NCBI GenBank assembly: GCA_021812105.1
Contig: JAKAOQ010000001.1
Span: forward strand, 1 to 55,994
From: Candidatus Micrarchaeota archaeon
GTDB lineage: Archaea > Micrarchaeota > Micrarchaeia > Micrarchaeales > Micrarchaeaceae
Direction of reading: 5' to 3'
DNA: 55,994 nt
Shown here: positions 654-42,136 of the stretch, one piece after another
How positions within the stretch are numbered: the stretch's first letter is position 1
How the letters are laid out: every line of letters starts with the position of its first letter
Notes under the pieces: model-generated
The model's database searches: none
What the model was told of the DNA's origin: nothing
The model's input: only the letters and a program-made list of their open reading frames with translations
Made by a program: the position numbers and the translations under genes

Positions 654-769
654 TGGCGGGAGTGGGGTTTGAACCCACGGCCTCTAGATGTCTCGTCATA
701 GCCCTGCGGCTCATCACTCATTTTTCTTTGATATGAGTCTAGCGCTCTACCAGGCTGAGCTACCCCGCC
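654..769 (-). tRNA. tRNA-Met (elongator) or tRNA-Ile2, anticodon CAT, with a 42-nt intron at 37/38
   Basis: Reverse complement folds as a cloverleaf: GGCGGGG TA GCTC AGCCTGGTA GAGC G CTAGA CTCATA[intron]A TCTAG AGGCC GTGGG TTCAAAC CCCAC TCCCGCC A. G1:C72 and an AU-containing anticodon stem argue against an initiator. No CCA is encoded. Confidence 0.9.
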
Positions 770-874: not shown

Positions 875-3214
875 GTGGTATTGATGGAGGCAGAGTCAAA
901 AACACCCGCTGAAGCGCACGCGGGCTCGGCTGGTCAGAAAACACACGGTGTCTCAAGACACAGTTACAACAGATACATGCCGTACGTTTACGTCTCTATA
1001 CTCTATCTTATACTCGCGCTCGTAATGTTCGCCCCCATATCTGCGCACATGTCCAGCGTCGCTAACGGCATCGGTGGCGACGTCTACCAGAACCTGTGGA
1101 ACATATGGTGGATAAAGTACTCGCTATCGCACCTTCATGGAATATTCTACACCACGCTGCTCTACTGGCCGGTCGGCGCCAACCTCGTATACCAGACCAT
1201 GGCACCAATCGCGTCGCTTATATCGATTCCGTTTCAGGCCGTGAGCACGACGTTCGCGTTCAACGTACTGTTCTTCCTCGGCTACATGCTCTCTGGACTT
1301 ACGATGTTCATACTCGCTGACTACGTGGTCAAGAACAAGTACGCGGCCTTCGTGGCTGGCCTGATATTCACTTTCAGCGCGACGCACGTTGCGCACTCCT
1401 ACGGATCAATAGTAATGTCAAATATAGAATGGATACCGCTCGCACTATACTTCTTCCTAAAGCTTCTTGACAGCGATAAGTCTAGGGCTATGCTCTACAG
1501 CGCTGTCGGCCTTGGACTGTCTATGATGCTCGTCTCGTTCATGAGCACGATAGAGATGACTGTTGTGACTTTCGACCTTCTTGCCCTCGTATTCCTTGTC
1601 TATCTAATATCCCCATCCACAAGGAAGCGCGTGCTCAACCTTCGCTTCTGGGAAGGGGTCGCTGTTGCAATTGTATTGATGCTTATAACTGGGATATGGG
1701 GTTTCGTCCCGGCGATACACACGCTTCTTAGCGGCGGTGCTTCGAGTACGGCCAACTATCTTAACGGAATTCAGAACAACGAGGTGTGGAGCGTGGACCT
1801 GCTCTCCTTCTTCCTGCCGAACCCCTACAACGGGGTATTCAGCACAATGACAGCTTCGTACTTTGGCATATTCTCACCAGACATCGCCGAAAGGAGCGCC
1901 TACATAGGATATACTGTACTCGCTCTCGCTGCGTACGCCGTATTCAAGGAGCGCAGGAAGACGATACTATGGGTTTCAATAGCTGTGATATTCGCGTGGC
2001 TCTCTCTCGGCCCGTACCTACAGGTAGGCGGAGTGATTACGGGACTGCCTGAGCTGTTCCTCGCCTATCATTCGATTCCGCTCCTGAACATAGTGCGCGA
2101 GCCTGGAAGGTTTGATATAATAGCGATGATCGCCATGGCGATGCTCGCTGCAATAGGAACAGGAGAGGTTCTCAAGAGGTTTGGAAGTAAGGGAGGGGAT
2201 AGGACGAACGCGATGTTCGTTCTCGGCATAATCATAATACTGCTGCTCGTCGAAACCAACGGCTTCCAGATAGGGTCCGCGCTCGTGAACAGCACAACTA
2301 CCCACGTAGCGGTTCCAAACCTGTTCTACGAGATAAAGAACCTCAGCGGTAACTTTTCGATACTCATGCTGCCCGCGCTGCCGATCCAGAACTCTTACAC
2401 TCCGGCTCTCTACCCAGGCATGGAGAGCTATTACGCATCTATAACTGGCAAGCCGCTCGTGGGCGGTTACGTGACCAGGGCCAACACAACGATGGACCTG
2501 TCGGTCTACAACATACCTCTGGCCGTGCAGTCCACGAGGGTAGCCGAGGCCGGCAACATAACGTATCCGTCCCCGGTAATGCAGAGCCCGGTCAACCAGA
2601 CACTGCTAACGCTCTTCAACTACGATACAGGATTCGTAGTTTTGATGAGGCAGGCGTACAACTCTTCCAGGCTAAACTTAATGGCGGCCTACTTGGGCCA
2701 GATATTCGGAAACCCGGTGTACGTTGACAACTCCACCATAGCGTACCAGACCTCAAACGCCATAAAGAACAACGTATTCAAGAGCTACGTAGCTTTCCCG
2801 TCGCTCACTTCGTGGAGCCCCCAGTACGTTCCGCTTAATGGCACAGATAGGCTCTTCTGGGTGCCGATAACGGGAAGCGCAGAGCAGGGAACGATAGCGG
2901 TCTACGCGCCCTATCAGGCGAACTCTTCGCTGCAGATGGCGCTTTCGGGCGCTTTGGGCAGCGTGAACACCACCATCAGCTTCATAGCTTTCAGCAACTC
3001 TGGTAGCGCAAAGGCCTACGTGGCAGGCGAGAGCGCATCCGGTTTTACGCCCACGTCCATACTTAACGTGACGAGCACACCCAGGCTATACACGGTAGAT
3101 ACGCAGCTTACCTCTGGAGAGCGCGGCGATACGCTGCTGTTCGGGGTAGAGCAGAACTACACCACGAGCGGAAGCGTAGTCTACTTCGGAAACATAACGT
3201 TCTCGAAATCGTAG
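875..3214 (+). CDS. Large polytopic membrane protein, GT-C-fold glycosyltransferase-like (YfhO/PMT-like), with a sequon-rich extracellular C-terminal domain
   Basis: 779-aa ORF with many hydrophobic helices in the first ~470 aa. First loop reads GGDVYQNLWNIWW..YWPVGANL. The last ~300 aa carry 14 N-x-S/T sequons. No WWDxG motif, so it is not AglB. TTTAAAAT lies ~30 nt upstream of the GTG at 875; an alternative ATG is at 884. Confidence 0.6.
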   Translation: MVLMEAESKTPAEAHAGSAGQKTHGVSRHSYNRYMPYVYVSILYLILALVMFAPISAHMSSVANGIGGDVYQNLWNIWWIKYSLSHLHGIFYTTLLYWPVGANLVYQTMAPIASLISIPFQAVSTTFAFNVLFFLGYMLSGLTMFILADYVVKNKYAAFVAGLIFTFSATHVAHSYGSIVMSNIEWIPLALYFFLKLLDSDKSRAMLYSAVGLGLSMMLVSFMSTIEMTVVTFDLLALVFLVYLISPSTRKRVLNLRFWEGVAVAIVLMLITGIWGFVPAIHTLLSGGASSTANYLNGIQNNEVWSVDLLSFFLPNPYNGVFSTMTASYFGIFSPDIAERSAYIGYTVLALAAYAVFKERRKTILWVSIAVIFAWLSLGPYLQVGGVITGLPELFLAYHSIPLLNIVREPGRFDIIAMIAMAMLAAIGTGEVLKRFGSKGGDRTNAMFVLGIIIILLLVETNGFQIGSALVNSTTTHVAVPNLFYEIKNLSGNFSILMLPALPIQNSYTPALYPGMESYYASITGKPLVGGYVTRANTTMDLSVYNIPLAVQSTRVAEAGNITYPSPVMQSPVNQTLLTLFNYDTGFVVLMRQAYNSSRLNLMAAYLGQIFGNPVYVDNSTIAYQTSNAIKNNVFKSYVAFPSLTSWSPQYVPLNGTDRLFWVPITGSAEQGTIAVYAPYQANSSLQMALSGALGSVNTTISFIAFSNSGSAKAYVAGESASGFTPTSILNVTSTPRLYTVDTQLTSGERGDTLLFGVEQNYTTSGSVVYFGNITFSKS

Positions 3215-3438
3215 TTATTGATGTACGGGTGTACGTGAGGTATGTACGGCAGTTGGCGTGCTTACGCACGTAAACGGCGCGGATAATAAGGTATTTAAAA
3301 CCTGCTACTCAATGTTTCGTGTACAGGATAGGAGTATAAGGTGAAAAAGATGACTGATCCGAACGACGGACACCCGTAGTTATATGCGTTACTTTGGCGT
3401 ATTTTGGTTTACGCCGAGCTAGTTTTTAAGCTGTTTGA

Positions 3439-4824
3439 TTATATAGGCAGACCATAGTCTGTTCTCTTTCTTTCTTCTATATTTTTCTTTGAAAGTAGCG
3501 TGCTGTATTGGGCGCTGTACAGGTTGTCGAACCTTCTGTACCCTATGCTTCCGAGTATGACCTTGGTTATTATCAGTGTTTTCGACTCTACACCTTTTAT
3601 AGAGCCGAGCAGCCGCTTTTCTGTCTCTATAAGGTCATCTTCCTCGAATACCGGCACTAGGTACACGTTGCTGTCAGGAATAGAAACTCCGCAGGCGTAC
3701 GCGAACCTGTTCACCAGATCTACCTTCTCGTCAACTAGATCTTTGTAGCTGGAATAGACGGTTTTAAGATAAAGGTCGTAATTTTTGATCTCCAGGAGCA
3801 CCATCCCGTTGTACCTTATCGGCACTCTCTGCATGAACATCGTGGGCCTTATGATGATCGTTTGGCCTTTGATCAGCTTTTCAAAGGCGTTCTTGGCGCT
3901 GCCGACAGACAGGCCGTAGATTCTTTCTATCTCGGAGAAGCTTATAGTGCTGTTTTTATTCAGCTCCCTGAGCACCGCGTATTCCCTCAGCATCAGCTCC
4001 GATCCCGACGGCCTTCGCCTCTCCTTCGTCCTGTGCCACACCTTCTCCTTTAGCACGTCGAAGAAGGCGTCCCTTATCGGAATGAATCCGTAGCTCTCGG
4101 CGACTATCGCGGTGTACCAGCTCGCTGGGGTCTCACTGAGGGATTTCACCTTCCTTATCTCGTTTATGATTGCCTGCGCTATGCTTATCTTCTCGGCTAT
4201 GCAGTAGATAACTATATCGTACGGTCCCTTGGTCAGCATAGCCATCTGAACCCTCGGATTTCCCTCCAGCACCTGCTTAAGATCTTCGTAGTCTATCTCC
4301 GCATGCTCGGTCTCGAACTTTACAAATATAAAGAACTTGTAGAAGTCAAGGTTTTGCAGATTTAGATGTAGAGTATACCTGATGTCGAATTCCCCCTCCA
4401 GCCTTCTGATCCTGTACGGCAGGCTGCTCTCGGACAGATCGGCAAGCTTGCTCATGGTGCTGTAAGGCATCCTGGGGTTCATGCTCAAGGCGGTCAGAAT
4501 CGATTTGTCGTGCTCGTCCAGCCCGTAACCCGACCCCTGCTTCTCCTGCTGGCTACTCGCGTTTCCGGTATCATACTGAGGCACGGGCCTTGACAGCGGC
4601 GCCCTGTTTTGCGGCCTGGTCTTGGCCGGTATGAGCAGCCCGTCATCCCTCATCCAGCCCAGATAGTGCGTGACCTTTCTCGACCTGCCGATGTCCGGAT
4701 CGTACCTGCTCGTGGCCTCGAAGACGCAGAACCTCTTGTTGAGGTACTTCAGCTCTATGTAGCCACTGTACGCTGACTTCAGCTCGTTGAACGCGCTTCT
4801 TATCCTTTTGGGGACCTCCCGCAT
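3439..4824 (-). CDS. Tandem Lrp/AsnC-like regulator (two HTH plus RAM-like units) with a ~100-aa N-terminal extension
   Basis: 461 aa. First HTH unit: DKSILTALSMNPRMPYSTMSKLADLSESSLPYRIRRLEGE, followed by a beta-alpha-beta segment. Second unit: EYAVLRELNKNSTISFSEIERIYGLSVGSAKNAFEKL. The N-terminal YIELKYLNKRFCVFEATSRYDPDIGRSRKVTHYLG recalls the N termini of IS1634-type transposases. CTTAAATATAT lies ~25-35 nt upstream. Confidence 0.65.
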   Translation of the reverse strand: MREVPKRIRSAFNELKSAYSGYIELKYLNKRFCVFEATSRYDPDIGRSRKVTHYLGWMRDDGLLIPAKTRPQNRAPLSRPVPQYDTGNASSQQEKQGSGYGLDEHDKSILTALSMNPRMPYSTMSKLADLSESSLPYRIRRLEGEFDIRYTLHLNLQNLDFYKFFIFVKFETEHAEIDYEDLKQVLEGNPRVQMAMLTKGPYDIVIYCIAEKISIAQAIINEIRKVKSLSETPASWYTAIVAESYGFIPIRDAFFDVLKEKVWHRTKERRRPSGSELMLREYAVLRELNKNSTISFSEIERIYGLSVGSAKNAFEKLIKGQTIIIRPTMFMQRVPIRYNGMVLLEIKNYDLYLKTVYSSYKDLVDEKVDLVNRFAYACGVSIPDSNVYLVPVFEEDDLIETEKRLLGSIKGVESKTLIITKVILGSIGYRRFDNLYSAQYSTLLSKKNIEERKRTDYGLPI

Positions 4825-5059
4825 GCTCCCATTTTATAGTAGACAGCCCATATATTTAAGCCTATCTATTTTTAATTTATGATGTTGCCCATTATATGCA
4901 GAGTATTCTGTCACGTAATAGATGGGTATATATTTTGTATTTTTCATTATTTTATATTAAATATGATAGTAATTGTGCTCGATTGTTCTCAGAATTGGCT
5001 GGTTTTTCCTCTCTACTTATATATAAAAGGTAGGCGCAAATACTATCAAGACAAAAGCG

Positions 5060-5398
5060 ATGCGTACTGCGGGCTTGCTCTGTTGTGGGGCAGAAAGGTG
5101 TGTTGAAATGACCGGGGTTGCTAAGAAGCATAATAATTATAAAGGCTATAACTGGGACGGCAGGCTTCACAATTTCTACTTTATAAAGCCAATACCAAAC
5201 GTTGATGCTGATTCTCTTTCTGAAAAACTGCTCGGAATAAAGGGCGTAAAGGAGGTGCACGTTACAGAAGGTGACAGCGGTTTCCTTGTAAGGGCGAAGT
5301 ATTCTGATGGCGCCAAGGATGTTGGTGAGCAGATAGCGAAAAGCATGAACAGCAGGTACAATCTCTCACTAAGCTATTATAGTCTCAACAAAGAGTGA
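5060..5398 (+). CDS. Small stand-alone RAM/ACT-like (ferredoxin-fold) protein, paralog of 39469-39780
   Basis: FYFIKPIPNVDADSLSEKLLGIKGVKEVHVTEGDSGFLVRAKYSDG..IAKSM..YNLSLSYYSL fits the beta-alpha-beta-beta-alpha-beta Lrp/AsnC ligand-binding pattern (..V.ev..vtG.yD..v.v). About 57% identical to the paralog over ~74 aa. Alternative start at ATG 5108. A TATATATAAAAGG box lies ~30 nt upstream of 5060. Confidence 0.7.
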   Translation: MRTAGLLCCGAERCVEMTGVAKKHNNYKGYNWDGRLHNFYFIKPIPNVDADSLSEKLLGIKGVKEVHVTEGDSGFLVRAKYSDGAKDVGEQIAKSMNSRYNLSLSYYSLNKE

Positions 5399-5408
5399 TG
5401 GTGTTTAT

Positions 5409-5549
5409 ATGATTCTGGACGATGATGTGGTTGTTGTTGCGAAGGTCCCCGGAATGGTCTGGGAGATAAAGTACAGGAACGGGGAGAGCGCACAGGTTCA
5501 GGCAGGTAAGAGATCGCTTATTTCCAGAATTTTGGATCTGGTAAGGTAG
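5409..5549 (+). CDS. Conserved microprotein (46 aa), paralog of 39308-39472; not in the ORF track
   Basis: Hand translation: MILDDDVVVVAKVPGMVWEIKYRNGESAQVQAGKRSLISRILDLVR, TAG at 5547-5549. It starts 10 nt after the RAM gene stop. The paralog shares LDDDVVVV..PG.VW with only synonymous codon differences. Confidence 0.65.
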   Translation: MILDDDVVVVAKVPGMVWEIKYRNGESAQVQAGKRSLISRILDLVR

Positions 5550-5583
5550 CCACTCACCGCCTTACCAATTTCACCCCATAAAT

Positions 5584-5605
5584 CCCCACGGGTTTTCTCG
5601 TGGGG
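5584..5605 (+). terminator. Stable hairpin downstream of the microprotein gene (terminator-like or regulatory)
   Basis: CCCCACG(G) and (C)CGTGGGG form 7-9 bp around a TTTT loop, 35 nt after the stop at 5549. Confidence 0.3.
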
Positions 5606-5627
5606 TATGATGTTAAAAGTTGATTAA

Positions 5628-5843
5628 ATGAATTCAACAGAGAAGGACCAGGGCAAGTATCTTAGAAGGGAACCTACAGAGGATATTCACGTAAACGAGG
5701 GCCAGCTGGACAACTACGGAGAGGCGGCGGGAAGTAGCATGGGCCATTCCGTTTATGGTAAGCCGGGTTGGTATATTTCAGAACGTCTAAGAGAACATAT
5801 AGAAGAATCAAAAAAGACAGCTGACGAATCTACCGAGGCTTGA
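5628..5843 (+). CDS. Hypothetical small acidic protein (71 aa)
   Basis: ORF only, with no recognisable motif. It is followed by an 11-bp inverted repeat and a T-tract. Confidence 0.35.
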   Translation: MNSTEKDQGKYLRREPTEDIHVNEGQLDNYGEAAGSSMGHSVYGKPGWYISERLREHIEESKKTADESTEA

Positions 5844-5854
5844 TTTCATGCTTA

Positions 5855-5928
5855 AACTACGTTCCGGAAGTGCTAAGAAGAACCCCACAAACCTCTCACC
5901 ACGGAGGAACGTAGTTCTTTTCCTTTTC
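5855..5928 (+). terminator. Perfect 11-bp inverted repeat followed by a T-rich tract
   Basis: AACTACGTTCC (5855-5865) pairs with GGAACGTAGTT (5906-5916) around a 40-nt spacer. CTTTTCCTTTTC follows on the + strand. Confidence 0.35.
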
Positions 5929-5936
5929 ATATTCCT

Positions 5937-10417: not shown

Positions 10418-10491
10418 GCGACCGTAGTCTAACCTGGTTAGGACTTCGCCCTTCCAAGGCGAAAACCCGGGTTCAAATCCCGGCAGTCGCA
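10418..10491 (+). tRNA. tRNA-Gly, anticodon TCC, no intron
   Basis: Folds as GCGACCG TA GTCT AACCTGGTTA GGAC T TCGCC CTTCCAA GGCGA AAAC CCGGG TTCAAAT CCCGG CAGTCGC A, with one C:A mismatch at 6:67. Confidence 0.85.
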
Positions 10492-10570
10492 CTTACGCTT
10501 AGAACTTCATTATCCTTTCCATTTTATAGGATTAGGTTGATCCGCCTTGTAGTCGTATTATCATTCAATT

Positions 10571-36345: not shown

Positions 36346-36458
36346 AGCCCCGAGAGGGAATTGAACCCTCGACCTTCTGTTTTCTTGTCTTCTTGATTAA
36401 ACTTCTTTCCAAGAAGTTTACTTACAAGACAGACGCTCTACCACTGAGCTACCGGGGC
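36346..36458 (-). tRNA. tRNA-Thr, anticodon TGT, with a 41-nt intron at 37/38
   Basis: Reverse complement folds as GCCCCGG TA GCTC AGTGGTA GAGC G TCTGT CTTGTA[intron]A ACAGA AGGTC GAGGG TTCAATT CCCTC TCGGGGC T. The intron holds a perfect hairpin, AAACTTCTT-GGA-AAGAAGTTT. Confidence 0.9.
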
Positions 36459-38084: not shown

Positions 38085-38180
38085 AGCACTCTGCGTAGAT
38101 ATGCAACGGAAGTTGCTTAAATGTTTACGGGTCAGTCGAAAACCGTGGTTGATGGAATTGTGCGTTTTGCCTTAATAGGA

Positions 38181-38208
38181 ATATTTAAATATCTTTATCC
38201 CTTTATCC
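38181..38208 (+). promoter_or_regulatory. mntA-hepT promoter: TATA box plus a tandem 8-bp direct repeat (candidate RHH operator)
   Basis: ATATTTAAATAT (38181-38192) is followed immediately by CTTTATCC CTTTATCC (38193-38208), ending 5 nt before ATG 38214. Confidence 0.45.
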
Positions 38209-38213
38209 CTATT

Positions 38214-38726
38214 ATGGAAACAAAGATATACGTTTCCGACGATGTCGGCGCGAGATGGAAGGAGCTCGCGATGAAAAGATTCGGCTATGGAAGAGGGTCC
38301 ATAAGCAGGGCCGCCGAAGAGGCGCTCGCGCTTTGGATAGGCGCTGAAGAGAGGATAGAACGCATTCTCGGCGAATTCGTTTCGGCCGCGAAAAACGACG
38401 CACGTGTCTCCGCGCTGCTCCTCTTTGGAAGCTACGCGAGGAAAGAGAGGTACAACGACATAGACGTAGCGGTCGTGGTCGGAGACGGAGTAGGCAGCAG
38501 GGAACGCCTTGCCGTAGTCACCGAGTTCGAGAAGAGGGTGCCTGAAGGAGTAAGGGTAGACATAAGCGTATTCAATTCGCTAGGTGTGGATGTAAAGTCT
38601 AGTATACTGTCAGAGGGAATTGTGTTGTACTCCAAGGACAGGAGCGTTGTTTATGACCTCTCTTCTGAAGTGATAAAACAGAATTCTGACTTCGGTGTTG
38701 GATTGCGCTCTGTTTTGGGTGTGTAG
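38214..38726 (+). CDS. mntA: Minimal nucleotidyltransferase (MNT) antitoxin with an N-terminal ribbon-helix-helix domain
   Basis: LLLFGSYARKERYNDIDVAVVV is the GS...DxD Pol-beta nucleotidyltransferase motif. The N-terminal METKIYVSDDVGARWKELAMKRF...ISRAAEEALALWI is CopG/RHH-like. The stop abuts the hepT ATG. Confidence 0.8.
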   Translation: METKIYVSDDVGARWKELAMKRFGYGRGSISRAAEEALALWIGAEERIERILGEFVSAAKNDARVSALLLFGSYARKERYNDIDVAVVVGDGVGSRERLAVVTEFEKRVPEGVRVDISVFNSLGVDVKSSILSEGIVLYSKDRSVVYDLSSEVIKQNSDFGVGLRSVLGV

Positions 38727-39152
38727 ATGCTTGACAGGGGGAGGATAGCAAAAAGGCTGCTGGATCTGGAGAGGTACTCGTCCAGGCTGGAGAAGATAGC
38801 CCCAGCCAGCTTTGAGAAGTATATGGAAGCGGGCCATGAGCTGAAGGCCGCGGTGGAAAGATATCTCCAGCTGATAAGTGATATAGAACTGGATATATCA
38901 CTGCTGGTCTACAAGGGCATGGAGCTCTCGCTCGCCGGAGACGAGACGAGTCTGCTTGAAAGGCTGCAGGGAGTGCTCGGCAAGAAAGTAATAGAGGAGG
39001 TGAGACCCAGAAGGACGCTGAGGAACAAACTGGTCCATGCATATTCGGACGAATCCTACGATGAAGACGCCTTCGCACAGGCGCATGATTTGAGGGATAT
39101 AGTGGAATTTGAGAAGGCAGTTAAAAGGCAGCTCGGAAAGAAGAGGGCGTGA
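38727..39152 (+). CDS. hepT: HEPN-domain (DUF86) toxin
   Basis: 141 aa with RNKLVHAY, the R-x4-H HEPN motif, at nt 39021-39038. Confidence 0.8.
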   Translation: MLDRGRIAKRLLDLERYSSRLEKIAPASFEKYMEAGHELKAAVERYLQLISDIELDISLLVYKGMELSLAGDETSLLERLQGVLGKKVIEEVRPRRTLRNKLVHAYSDESYDEDAFAQAHDLRDIVEFEKAVKRQLGKKRA

Positions 39153-39266
39153 CGACTTCACAAAAGTGCCCCTAAACCATTGACACCTTGACCAAGTCGC
39201 AGTAATGATGGACAGGCACGCTCGATTGGGTAAAAGAATGTTGATTTTGTATGCCAGATGGGGAGA

Positions 39267-39284
39267 CCTGCGTGAAAGCGCAGG
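39267..39284 (-). terminator. Hairpin downstream of the second microprotein gene
   Basis: CCTGCG-TGAAAG-CGCAGG, ~25 nt after the stop at 39308. It occupies the same position as the hairpin at 5584-5605 in the first copy. Confidence 0.3.
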
Positions 39285-39307
39285 CCCGGATTAGAATGTT
39301 GGGATAA

Positions 39308-39472
39308 TTAGCGTATTATGGGAGATGTAGACCTGAACCTGCCGACAATCTTGGAGAACAAACCTGTTTTCCTTGTCGTTTCTTGCGGTATATCCTCGTC
39401 CTTTAACCTTAGATCCCAGACGAAACCCGGAATCCTTTCTACCACAACAACGTCGTCGTCGAGTTTCGTCAT
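39308..39472 (-). CDS. Conserved microprotein (54 aa), paralog of 5409-5549; not in the ORF track
   Basis: Hand translation: MTKLDDDVVVVERIPGFVWDLRLKDEDIPQETTRKTGLFSKIVGRFRSTSPIIR. Its ATG (39472-39470) overlaps the TGA of the RAM gene (39471-39469) in an ATGA arrangement. Confidence 0.65.
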   Translation of the reverse strand: MTKLDDDVVVVERIPGFVWDLRLKDEDIPQETTRKTGLFSKIVGRFRSTSPIIR

Positions 39473-39780
39473 GCCCTCACCTTCCTAAGATTGTAATAAC
39501 TCAGTGCAACGCCGTACTTGCCCTTCATGTTCTTCGCGATATACTCGCCTATCGAGTCGTCCTCGCCGGTGTACTTAGCCTTGACTACATAACCGTATTC
39601 GCCCTCGGTTATGTCGACTTCCCCTATGGCCTTTATGCCGAGCAGCCTCTCGGAAAGAGATTTGGCGTCCGTATTCGGTATAGGCTTTATGAAAAAGAAC
39701 TTATGCGGCTTCGCGCACATAACGCCTCTTTTGATTTTTGATACCTGCGTTGTTCCACCCACCAACCCACCATTATACAT
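39469..39780 (-). CDS. Small stand-alone RAM/ACT-like protein, paralog of 5060-5398
   Basis: FFFIKPIPNTDAKSLSERLLGIKAIGEVDITEGEYGYVVKAKYTGEDDSIGEYIAKNMKGKYGVALSYYNL. Alternative start at M21 (39720). A TATATAAA box lies just upstream of 39780. Confidence 0.7.
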   Translation of the reverse strand: MYNGGLVGGTTQVSKIKRGVMCAKPHKFFFIKPIPNTDAKSLSERLLGIKAIGEVDITEGEYGYVVKAKYTGEDDSIGEYIAKNMKGKYGVALSYYNLRKVRA

Positions 39781-39902
39781 TGTATCGCATTTGATTTATA
39801 TACCTTTTACTTTTTCTAAAATTTGATATGATTTTTTCGGATTATGGAAAGTATACTGGAAGGGAGTATAGGTCTTAAATTACTTTGTAATGAATAAATT
39901 AT

Positions 39903-40904
39903 ATGCAATTCAATAAGCTCCACAGGACCCTATTACAGGGACTCTGTTTGAACTCTAGAACGAGGACCCCCGAGCTCTCCAGGAAAATAGGTATTTCAAG
40001 GTACAAGATTACGAATTTGATAAAAGAAGTAGAAAAAGAGTTGGGGCTTAGCTACACCCTAGAGTTAGATTATAAAAAATTGGGTTTTGGGGCTTTACAT
40101 TTAACTTATCTGAATTTTGAGAAAAAACCAAGTTTGAAATCAATATCCGATGTACTAAATAAAATTCCATCAATACAGTTGGCATTGGCCACAAATGGAG
40201 ATTTTGAACTTCTCTGTTTCACAGTAACCAAGACTGCCATTGAATATTCCCAGGTAGAGGTCGCTATGCAGATTTTATTTGAAAGATACGGCACAATGGT
40301 ACACTCCAGCGAGATAACACTGATGCGACACGGGTTCGTGCCTCTCAGCAATGCGCTTATAGGCCAGTCCGCGATAGAAGGGAGCTATAAGAGCCTGCTG
40401 CCCGTTCTTAACACAAACTCAAGAATGAAAATCAGGGAGATAAGTAAAAGGATAAATATGAGTGAGGATCTTGTCCGATACTATATGATAAAGATGAAAA
40501 AAGAGCGTATAATAAGGAGGTACACCACCATAGTGACAAAACCGAACACAAAATTTACGATTGCATACTTTTCAAGCTACTCTGTGAGAGAGAATATTCG
40601 ATCGAGAATAGATAAAGAGAGGAACGAAATTATTTTCCGCAACGATGAGGTGAGTTATGTGAACAATTTCCAAATGATGTTTTCCATAACTGGTAGTGGG
40701 CAGGCATTCAATCTCGCGGCTTTTCCTAACAGGAAGTATGGATTAGAGCACAGCATAAATGCGCACAACGCAATATATGCACCCGAAAAGCCCGAGGTAA
40801 AGAAGGCCGTCATAATAAAGGTGGTAAAAGGTATACTGCCTCTTAGGAATATCGATGTGAAGGCAAATTATGACTACACGAACTGGCCAACAGAATTCTC
40901 CTGA
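39903..40904 (+). CDS. Tandem Lrp/AsnC-like regulator (two HTH plus RAM-like units)
   Basis: 333 aa. HTH units: LLQGLCLNSRTRTPELSRKIGISRYKITNLIKEVEKE and LLPVLNTNSRMKIREISKRINMSEDLVRYYMIKMKKE. CTTAAATTAC lies ~25-30 nt upstream. Same architecture as 3439-4824 without the N-terminal extension. Confidence 0.65.
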   Translation: MQFNKLHRTLLQGLCLNSRTRTPELSRKIGISRYKITNLIKEVEKELGLSYTLELDYKKLGFGALHLTYLNFEKKPSLKSISDVLNKIPSIQLALATNGDFELLCFTVTKTAIEYSQVEVAMQILFERYGTMVHSSEITLMRHGFVPLSNALIGQSAIEGSYKSLLPVLNTNSRMKIREISKRINMSEDLVRYYMIKMKKERIIRRYTTIVTKPNTKFTIAYFSSYSVRENIRSRIDKERNEIIFRNDEVSYVNNFQMMFSITGSGQAFNLAAFPNRKYGLEHSINAHNAIYAPEKPEVKKAVIIKVVKGILPLRNIDVKANYDYTNWPTEFS

Positions 40905-42136
40905 TCAGATAATTTATTACTAATCTCAGTGAATTTTTGCTCTATTTCTAATGGTTTGCCTATTCCTATGACAATGGTTTCGTCATCTTTTGGGTGTATG
41001 ATGTCCTTTATGAAATTCAGCTCCTCTTCTCTTATCTCTTTATCCGGATTTTCTTCGGTAAAGAGCAAGGGTGTTTCAGGAACATGCAGGCCGGCACCCG
41101 TCGCCTCTTTCAACTTAATCCTGTTAACAACGAATGCAAGTGCCCTGTTCTCCCATTTTATTGCGTCTGATATGATTTCGCTTTTGCTATTTACAAATGC
41201 GCTAGTAACATCATAAATCAGAATGTCGTTTGTAACAGGTATATAATTTGACCGCCTCGGCTGTAAGCTTTGAACAAGCACGCCAAAAGCCACGCCAAAA
41301 GCGATCAGTAGGTAGTAGGGCTCTATGCGTGTGCCAAGGAATACCCAACTAAACAGCATAGTAAAAAAAGGACTTGCAATGAAAACGTTCCCTGCGATCG
41401 AGGTCTTTACGCTTCTGAATGCCGCAACAAACAGAAAAGTAAGAAGCACGTTTTGTACAATGCCCAGTATAAGCACCCCGATAACGGTCGCGCCGCTGAC
41501 ACCTGAGAGGTTAAGCGAACCGGTAAAGATTGAAAGGAGGGAGAATACTATCAAAGCGACCAGATTGTATGCAAAGATGGAACTTGTCAGTTCGTAGTTA
41601 TACCTCTTGGATATTCCGGAAACGAACGCGTCCAATACGGCGGCGACAAGCAGCAGCAGAACAAAAGGGAGATAACGTATAGGTATGCTTATAGCTGTTC
41701 CGCCAAGAAGAGTTGCGGCGAGGGCGGAAAAACCAATTACTACGCCGGCGATGTCATACTTGGTGACATGTTCCCGCAGGAGTTTTGGAGCCATGAGTAT
41801 GAGTATCAAGGGCCAAGATCTGTAGACAACAGCAAGCAAATCTGCGCTGACGAAATGCGTTACATAGCTAAATATAAGGGATATACCAGCGTATGCCAAG
41901 AGCCCAAATGAGAGAAGGGTCAATATGCCTTTGCCCGTAGTAAAATATGTTTTGACGTGCTTCAGTGTTCTTCTAGAATACGCTACCATAAACGAAACGG
42001 ACGTACCGACTAGGGAAACCAAAAGCATGAGGGTGATAGGATTTATACCGTTGCCTAGTACGTATGCTATAGGTACCACTGCAGTAAACAGCAGCGCAAA
42101 CGAAAGGAGGACATAACCGTAAAGCTTTACATTCAT
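40874..42136 (-). CDS. DMT/EamA-family permease with a ~125-aa soluble C-terminal extension
   Basis: Ten hydrophobic helices are followed by a hydrophilic tail (..IKWENRALAFVVNRIKLKEATGAGLHV..DETIVIGIGKPLEIEQKF..). The 3' end overlaps the convergent regulator gene by 31 nt. Confidence 0.65.
   Translation of the reverse strand: MNVKLYGYVLLSFALLFTAVVPIAYVLGNGINPITLMLLVSLVGTSVSFMVAYSRRTLKHVKTYFTTGKGILTLLSFGLLAYAGISLIFSYVTHFVSADLLAVVYRSWPLILILMAPKLLREHVTKYDIAGVVIGFSALAATLLGGTAISIPIRYLPFVLLLLVAAVLDAFVSGISKRYNYELTSSIFAYNLVALIVFSLLSIFTGSLNLSGVSGATVIGVLILGIVQNVLLTFLFVAAFRSVKTSIAGNVFIASPFFTMLFSWVFLGTRIEPYYLLIAFGVAFGVLVQSLQPRRSNYIPVTNDILIYDVTSAFVNSKSEIISDAIKWENRALAFVVNRIKLKEATGAGLHVPETPLLFTEENPDKEIREEELNFIKDIIHPKDDETIVIGIGKPLEIEQKFTEISNKLSDQENSVGQFV

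Follow-up and report, generated by a model that had tools for sequence, protein, structure and literature searches.

The 55,994-nucleotide stretch analysed here (the window), positions 1 to 55,994 of contig JAKAOQ010000001.1 from a Candidatus Micrarchaeota archaeon (GenBank assembly GCA_021812105.1), carries two paralogous copies of a small gene group. In each copy a predicted Lrp/AsnC-type regulator built from two fused units is transcribed divergently from a gene for a stand-alone RAM-domain protein, and that gene is followed by one for a microprotein. Our preferred reading, of moderate confidence, treats both loci as self-contained regulatory modules of the Lrp/AsnC ('feast/famine') type, with the RAM protein as probable co-factor. 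The six genes are:

Positions 3439-4824, minus strand: regulator 1, 461 amino acids
Positions 5108-5398, plus strand: RAM protein 1, 96 amino acids from the probable start at 5108 (the frame is open from an ATG at 5060)
Positions 5409-5549, plus strand: microprotein 1, 46 amino acids
Positions 39308-39472, minus strand: microprotein 2, 54 amino acids
Positions 39469-39780, minus strand: RAM protein 2, 103 amino acids from the ATG at 39780
Positions 39903-40904, plus strand: regulator 2, 333 amino acids

Two copies of one arrangement

An earlier note on this DNA had described the same architecture twice: a regulator, a divergent protein of about 100 residues, an open reading frame (ORF) of 46 or 54 codons, and a hairpin. 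All of these elements are present at both loci, and the ORFs lie where that note placed them. Its figure of about 57% identity between the two RAM proteins is also reproduced (57% over 75 residues, E=3e-32). The microproteins are 41% identical over 44 residues (E=4e-12), and the alignments identify both pairs as paralogues, with similarity far beyond chance. The two regulators share only 20% identity by BLASTP; residues 4-322 of regulator 2 align to the profile of the regulator-1 family with an hhalign probability of 99.4% (E=7e-22), and from this alignment we class regulator 2 as a short, divergent member of that family.

The duplication is old rather than a recent local copy: the two loci are only about 65% identical in DNA. 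Three contigs from public metagenome-assembled genomes (MAGs; L011-L013) match the window with 99.3% identity across 9.7 kb. Related loci come from Candidatus Micrarchaeota, plus one labelled Nanoarchaeota, and nearly all of the named homologues belong to Micrarchaeia or Micrarchaeota.

The gene order is conserved across Micrarchaeota

Locus contexts were anchored on the RAM protein and, separately, on the regulator, and all six-frame ORFs were scored with hidden Markov models (HMMs) of the three parts. Five arrangements are found:

Regulator divergent from RAM gene, with downstream microprotein: window copy 1 (the same as L011-L013), window copy 2, the L005 group, L008 and L009
RAM gene with microprotein and no regulator: L031/L032, and L010, which is too short to tell
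Regulator divergent from RAM gene, with no downstream microprotein: L014, L015/L016, L019, L035, L036 and L038
RAM gene alone: L017
Regulator without a RAM gene: L033, L034 and L037

The regulator is the divergent neighbour of the RAM gene in 11 of the 13 informative distinct RAM loci, and this holds for RAM proteins that are down to 29-31% identical. When loci are chosen via the regulator alone, a RAM gene adjoins it in four of seven. The flanking genes vary from locus to locus (isoleucyl-tRNA synthetase, gyrase, ribosomal proteins, DUF373 and others), leaving the regulator as the only recurrent neighbour of the RAM gene, and it is because the flanks differ that the module looks self-contained. 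A fourth conserved gene was considered and rejected: the genes of about 236 codons that lie downstream in L001 and L019 are unrelated.

The trio is therefore not a peculiarity of this genome, as the earlier note had allowed it might be; it is syntenic in other genomes too. What does not survive is the claim that its members are obligately linked. Only one RAM sub-clade has the downstream microprotein: all seven loci of this close clade, which is of the HKFFFIKPIPN type, carry it, and the seven distant loci do not. RAM gene and regulator each occur without the other. L037 carries two full-length regulator paralogues in tandem (3001-4386 and 4547-5929), with no RAM gene nearby.

Several distant loci carry a different small ORF, situated between regulator and RAM gene:

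L014, positions 4808-4996: ORF with an SW-(I/V)-Y motif
L036, positions 2537-2662: ORF with an SW-(I/V)-Y motif
L038, positions 2391-2600: ORF with an SW-(I/V)-Y motif
L015, positions 4895-5023: zinc-ribbon ORF (CPxC...CxxC)

These upstream ORFs of the distant clades may be alternative microprotein partners. The idea that those of L014, L036 and L038 are the same microprotein in swapped gene order is unsupported, a hint at most: the HMM of the downstream microprotein gives no match to them.

The proteins of about 100 residues belong to a stand-alone RAM family

An exhaustive profile search gathers 135 RAM family representatives (at 50% identity) with E<=1e-3, nearly all of them 56-137 residues long. 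PF01037, the Lrp/AsnC ligand-binding family, is matched by 41 of the 82 members scanned, and no other family recurs. Taken individually, RAM protein 1 scores 17.4 bits against PF01037, below the cutoff, and RAM protein 2 has no Pfam match. The best matches of the family profile in the Protein Data Bank (PDB) are the 75-residue Pyrococcus stand-alone RAM proteins 2e1a and 2cvi (E~1.5e-4), with full-length Lrp proteins next. The AlphaFold2 (AF2) model of RAM protein 2 has the beta-alpha-beta-beta-alpha-beta fold, with a pLDDT of 67 (70-82 in the core); strands span residues 24-31, 52-59, 63-70 and 95-97, and helices span residues 39-47 and 77-89. The best Foldseek matches of the model are FFRP/Lrp structures. 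Family profile, Pfam matches, predicted fold and Foldseek together identify the two window proteins as members of a stand-alone RAM-domain family, as the earlier note had supposed in calling them RAM/ACT-like. Each has a single RAM domain, no helix-turn-helix (HTH) and a length of about 83-103 residues.

Conservation in the family peaks in the segment EV.(I/V)TEGdYGF.VKA, for which alignments give two counterparts, one being the GEYDLIVKV hairpin of the Pyrococcus stand-alone RAM protein DM1 and the other lying in the first RAM domain of the regulator. All family members have a variable, basic N-terminal tail. For RAM protein 1, gene calls in the near-identical contigs L011-L013 place the start at 5108, and an AGGTG Shine-Dalgarno-like motif stands 9 nt before it. 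For RAM protein 2, an alternative ATG at 39720 would give 83 residues. An ATG or GTG is conserved at this position in orthologues; the invariant His of the RAM core follows six codons later, and the 95%-identical tract described below begins at the same point. The true RAM protein of the copy-2 clade may thus have about 83 residues, the usual size of a stand-alone RAM protein, rather than 103.

The regulators are double Lrp proteins, one with a transposase-like domain

The AF2 model and Pfam together divide regulator 1 as follows:

Residues 1-68 (positions 4621-4824, minus strand): N-terminal domain, one helix and a beta-sheet, with the motif YLGxIT.dG
Residues 69-99: disordered linker
Residues ~100-258: Lrp unit 1, winged HTH (wHTH) plus RAM domain
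Between the units: VWHRTKERRRP linker
Residues ~272-445: Lrp unit 2

Regulator 1 matches the AsnC-type HTH family PF13404 with 40.6 bits (cutoff 27); its match to AsnC_trans_reg (PF01037) is sub-threshold, at 20.7 bits against a cutoff of 25, and covers unit 1 only. The best NCBIfam matches of unit 1 are LysM and AsnC, far under the equivalog cutoffs (54 against 180 bits). The AF2 model, built from a 41-sequence alignment (pLDDT 89.9, pTM 0.75), contains two full units of HTH plus beta-alpha-beta-beta-alpha-beta fold, with a three-helix HTH in each. In a Foldseek search with this model the top match is the fused double-Lrp protein NirDL (E=3.7e-11, 373 aligned columns), followed by about 40 single Lrp/AsnC structures with TM-scores of 0.7-0.78. 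The Pyrococcus Lrp-type factor FL11 is among the best structural matches of this model and of the RAM protein model alike. The duplication into two units is apparent in the structure model only; at the sequence level units 1 and 2 align in the HTH alone (hhalign E=0.006).

The regulator-1 family comprises at least 45 clusters at 90% identity. Its full-length members have 443-492 residues, and both HTH motifs are conserved. Scanning metagenomes with the regulator gave one full-length locus only, and scans of viral contigs gave no locus.

Regulator 2 matches HTH_24 (PF13412) in two stretches with 28.7 bits (cutoff 21.9), and scores 24.5 bits against PF13404, just under the cutoff of 27. NCBIfam gives Lrp-type matches at residues 1-105 and 156-223, and the RAM domains are covered by the family-profile alignment, which extends across both units. 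Domain searches, the two full units of the model and the Foldseek ranking of NirDL and then Lrp/AsnC proteins all agree with the earlier description of the regulators as Lrp/AsnC-like proteins built of two HTH plus RAM units. That description went too far in treating the two as equivalent: regulator 1 has the extra N-terminal domain and the conserved VWxRTKExxRP linker, whereas regulator 2 has two Lrp-like units and neither of these. A 327-residue double Lrp protein without the N-terminal domain is also present in L021, an unrelated metagenome contig.

The N-terminal domain of regulator 1 has relatives elsewhere. An HMM of residues 1-68 matches the N-termini (residues ~20-75) of eight ORFs of about 480 codons, with E=6e-12 to 3e-10. 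Two of the eight, in L029 and L025, were scanned and both carry PF01609 (DDE_Tnp_1). These matches identify the domain as a homologue of the N-terminus of IS4/IS1634-type DDE transposases. About 45 residues (..kyYvYe.tsrwDkekkk.rk...YLGrIteeG..) align between the two with E~1e-10, but the regulator has no DDE catalytic domain and carries the homologous segment joined to Lrp units. Because of this fusion and the missing catalytic domain, the segment appears to be a domesticated transposase DNA-binding module attached to a double Lrp protein.

Two membrane protein genes adjoin the regulators. Next to regulator 1 lies a gene for a 779-residue multi-pass membrane protein (875-3214, plus strand) with no Pfam match, and it occupies the same position in L011-L013. 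An EamA-family transporter gene (40874-42136, minus strand) is convergent with regulator 2, the two genes sharing 31 nt at the 3' end of the regulator; L014 likewise has an EamA fragment (2125-2487) beside its regulator. EamA was seen in these two loci only, and the transporter could be a regulated exporter.

Promoter-like and terminator-like elements

The divergent spacers and the hairpins that end the RAM-microprotein operons are:

Positions 4825-5107, unstranded: AT-rich divergent spacer of copy 1, with a TATA box for the regulator, a TATA-like element for the RAM gene and an inverted repeat
Positions 39781-39902, unstranded: divergent spacer of copy 2, with two TATA boxes and an inverted repeat
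Positions 5584-5605, plus strand: hairpin after operon 1, with a 9-bp GC-rich stem (-21.8 kcal/mol for a 76-nt stretch, z=-2.8)
Positions 39265-39287, minus strand: hairpin after operon 2, with a 9-bp GC-rich stem (-15.2 kcal/mol, z=-2.7)

In copy 1 the regulator TATA box, GGCTTAAATAT, lies inside 4850-4862 (minus strand), 26 nt from the ATG, and the TATA-like TTATATATAAAAGG at 5018-5031 (plus strand) precedes the RAM gene; an imperfect inverted repeat occupies 4964-4978 and 5034-5048. In copy 2 the regulator box is GGTCTTAAATTA at 39871-39882 (plus strand), 21 nt from the ATG, and the RAM gene has TATATAAA at 39795-39802 (minus strand). Here a 21-nt imperfect inverted repeat (39779-39799 and 39894-39914) spans both start codons. 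These spacer repeats are AT-rich and none is common between spacers. Of 16 related loci, 10 have a generic archaeal TTTAAATA box at a distance of 20-27 nt ahead of the regulator ATG, a spacing which implies that the regulator messenger RNAs are leaderless. The similar TATA elements to which the earlier note drew attention do exist as GGCTTAAATAT and GGTCTTAAATTA, though as ordinary archaeal promoters and not as a module-specific signal. The GC-rich hairpin that it placed at the end of both operons is there in each case, and the operon 2 stem is retained in L008 with a changed loop.

An Rfam scan of the window returned tRNAs only. There are three such genes (654-769, minus strand; 36346-36458, minus strand; 10418-10492, plus strand); the two long ones (116 and 113 nt), which ARAGORN missed and Rfam found, presumably contain introns.

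How the module may work

We propose that the regulator would act as a single-chain pseudo-dimer, its two fused wHTH plus RAM units supplying what an ordinary Lrp dimer supplies. In the putative ancestral form, represented by copy 1, a third and presumably DNA-binding domain would have been added from the N-terminus of a transposase. Transcribed as a leaderless messenger RNA from a standard TATA box, the regulator most likely binds the short AT-rich spacer and controls both promoters. The operon that faces it would provide a free RAM domain without a DNA-binding part and, in this clade, a translationally coupled microprotein. By analogy with pairs of full-length Lrp and stand-alone RAM proteins, the free RAM protein may join, or compete for, the ring formed by the RAM domains of the regulator. 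Either would alter the oligomeric state of the regulator or the way it responds to a small ligand, which is probably an amino acid; the microprotein would serve the RAM protein as an accessory subunit.

Several observations weigh against a co-factor role for the RAM protein. RAM genes stand without a neighbouring regulator in L017 and L031, as do regulators without a RAM gene in L033, L034 and L037. Compared with the regulator's own RAM domains the RAM protein shows no special closeness (hhalign E=0.004). The canonical Asp of the G-x-Y-D hairpin, present in DM1, is an invariant Gly in the RAM family, so that ligand binding may differ or be lost. A k-mer search for a shared operator over 12 regulator-RAM spacers gave TATA-like words only. 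Finally, the RAM and regulator sides recombine independently (see below), which argues against tight co-adaptation of specific partners.

Some of these points count in favour of an alternative that we think unlikely but take seriously, namely that the regulator is an ordinary Lrp-type factor, the divergent operon is its target, and RAM protein and microprotein act alone, in metabolite binding or buffering or in enzyme regulation. Divergent regulator-target pairs are the commonest Lrp/AsnC arrangement. The RAM-microprotein pair without an adjacent regulator in L031/L032, the lone RAM gene of L017 and the independent recombination of the two sides all fit such a target. On the other hand, the RAM gene has the regulator as its sole recurrent neighbour and shows no consistent linkage with a gene for an enzyme or transporter, and those stand-alone RAM proteins whose structures are solved belong to the realm of Lrp assemblies.

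The RAM-microprotein cassette appears to recombine apart from its regulator

One tract in copy 2 is far more similar to another genome than its surroundings are:

Positions 39279-39719, minus strand: 441-bp tract that holds the RAM core, the microprotein gene and the hairpin and has 95% DNA identity to positions 2165-2605 of L008, from a different MAG

Microprotein 2 and its L008 counterpart are identical at 51 of 54 residues, with dS=0.028. Outside the tract, the regulator side and the downstream flank cannot be aligned to L008, and the N-terminal tail of the RAM protein aligns weakly, at about 65%. The L008 regulator is full-length (450 residues) and only 22% identical to regulator 2. The comparison points to a recent recombination or transfer of the RAM-microprotein cassette at 39279-39719, independent of its regulator.

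A possible second case involves L015 and L016: past a breakpoint near position 4756 of both, the 5.5 kb that begin with the regulator-RAM spacer are 99.96% identical. Their regulators are 35% identical, and the upstream genes differ (a ribosomal operon in one, DNA ligase in the other). Either the divergent spacer is a recombination point at which regulator and RAM partners are reshuffled, or some MAG contigs are chimeric.

Could the RAM-microprotein pair then be a small mobile or addiction cassette, akin to a toxin-antitoxin system, for which the regulator is merely a frequent landing neighbour? The near-identical tract between unrelated flanks would suit this idea, as would two small, translationally coupled genes and the position of copy 2 beside a toxin-antitoxin pair. 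We nevertheless find it improbable. RAM protein and microprotein have no match in PADLOC, viral contigs or plasmids; the RAM fold is no known toxin or antitoxin fold; and the adjacency of regulator and RAM gene persists across RAM proteins that have diverged to 29-31% identity. Moreover, weaker homology continues upstream of the breakpoint, and gene conversion or allelic recombination fits this better than insertion does.

The toxin-antitoxin pair itself, directly downstream of copy 2 at 38121-39152, consists of a nucleotidyltransferase (MNT, Polbeta/NTP_transf_2) and a HepT-like (HEPN) protein.

The microprotein is a gene under purifying selection

Microprotein 1 consists of a MxLDDDVVVV..VPGMVWEIKY core and a C-terminal amphipathic segment. 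Across seven versions of the microprotein, nine residues never vary (M1, L, D, D, V, P, G, V and W). The downstream-microprotein HMM matches every locus of the close RAM clade with E<1e-23, which includes loci in other genomes and is in keeping with the conservation that the earlier note had proposed. In every pair with an estimable dS the dN/dS ratio is below 1, mostly 0.1-0.4, dS being saturated. From this pattern of substitution we conclude that the microprotein is a real gene under purifying selection.

Its placement indicates that translation is coupled to that of the RAM gene, through either an ATGA overlap or a Shine-Dalgarno-like motif. The microprotein 2 start overlaps the RAM 2 stop by 4 nt (ATGA), with a GGTGA motif upstream, and a GGTG motif precedes the microprotein 1 ATG by 7 nt. 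Among 12 longer RAM family members examined there was no fusion of the RAM and microprotein genes. The microprotein has no match in Pfam, PDB or PADLOC.

That the microprotein ORFs are chance ORFs in the 3' untranslated region of the RAM gene is a notion to which we give very little credence. They are indeed very short, lack a known homologue and are absent from the distant clades, and of the seven P0006 loci three (L001-L003) lack a gene call for the ORF. Against this stand the nine invariant residues, the low dN/dS values (at saturated dS), the conserved ATGA overlap or Shine-Dalgarno-like motif, and the retention of the ORF in both paralogous loci despite their DNA identity of only about 65%.

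A bolder synthesis is possible, which we offer tentatively and consider doubtful. Micrarchaeota would possess a lineage-specific three-part system in which a single-chain double-Lrp protein has recruited a transposase DNA-binding domain, a free RAM protein is set by clade-specific microproteins (of the LDDD/VW type downstream, or the SW-I/V-Y-type or zinc-ribbon ORFs upstream), and the cassette passes from one regulator or genome to another by recombination at the divergent promoter. If this were true, modular 'partner-swapping' would let a genome with few transcription factors rewire a global regulator.

Comparison with known systems

Like other DPANN archaea, Micrarchaeota combine tiny genomes with few recognisable transcription factors and dependence on a host, and how they sense nutrients is little understood. 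The regulator family (45 clusters at 90% identity) and the RAM family (135 representatives at 50%) now offer a concrete, testable candidate, and a compact system in which to study the possible modulation of Lrp assemblies by stand-alone RAM domains and microproteins.

The large building blocks are not themselves new. The earlier note's suggestion of an undescribed cassette is too strong for the parts: annotated members of the regulator-1 family are already called Lrp/AsnC family or winged-helix regulators by NCBI and JGI, and some RAM proteins appear in databases as 'Lrp/AsnC ligand binding domain-containing protein'. Since all the large components belong to known, already annotated families, the conceptual advance is modest.

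In structure, the regulator recalls NirDL and AhbA-AhbB, the siroheme decarboxylases (PDB 4ch7, 4czc and 4czd), which likewise combine two Lrp-like units, in one chain or as a heterodimer, into a pseudo-dimer. Those proteins, however, are enzymes of heme d1 and heme biosynthesis, with negligible sequence similarity to the regulators and a pathway context that the loci here lack. That the double-Lrp protein is such an enzyme and not a transcription factor is barely credible: although NirDL is the best structural match and regulator 2 gives weak NCBIfam matches to AhbA and AhbB, these score 18.1 bits against a cutoff of 140 and 14.2 bits against 125, identity to NirDL is 11-13%, no heme or nir/ahb gene occurs in any locus context read, the extra N-terminal domain derives from a DNA-transacting protein, and both HTH motifs are conserved.

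In gene order, the loci resemble classical Lrp/AsnC regulators with a divergent target (AsnC-asnA, archaeal LysM and BarR), which are also transcribed divergently across a short AT-rich spacer. The divergent 'target' in Micrarchaeota differs in being a RAM domain rather than a metabolic gene.

The closest parallel is the Pyrococcus pair of FL11 (PH1519; PDB 1ri7, 2cyy and 2e1c) and DM1 (2e1a and 2cvi), where an Lrp-type wHTH plus RAM factor exists beside an HTH-less, RAM-only protein of about 75-100 residues. Among PDB sequences, those that best match the RAM family described here are the DM1-type chains. FL11 and DM1 are reported to interact, and partnership between a full-length Lrp protein and a stand-alone RAM protein is an established concept. 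The module in Micrarchaeota departs from the Pyrococcus pair in several respects. Its regulator is a two-unit single chain, in its main form with the transposase-like N-terminal domain; its RAM gene is usually the divergent neighbour of the regulator and is co-transcribed with the microprotein gene; and its RAM protein begins with a basic tail and carries Gly in place of the canonical Asp in the beta2-beta3 hairpin. To our knowledge, neither a transposase-derived domain on a double Lrp protein nor a tightly coupled microprotein is known from characterised Lrp systems.

The module is, on this comparison, a lineage-specific variant of the 'feast/famine' regulator and stand-alone RAM arrangement and not a new kind of system. 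What it appears to add is a Micrarchaeota-wide family of single-chain double Lrp proteins whose N-terminal domain derives from a transposase, a recurrent divergent gene for a stand-alone RAM protein, a clade-specific coupled microprotein, and the apparent swapping of partners between loci.

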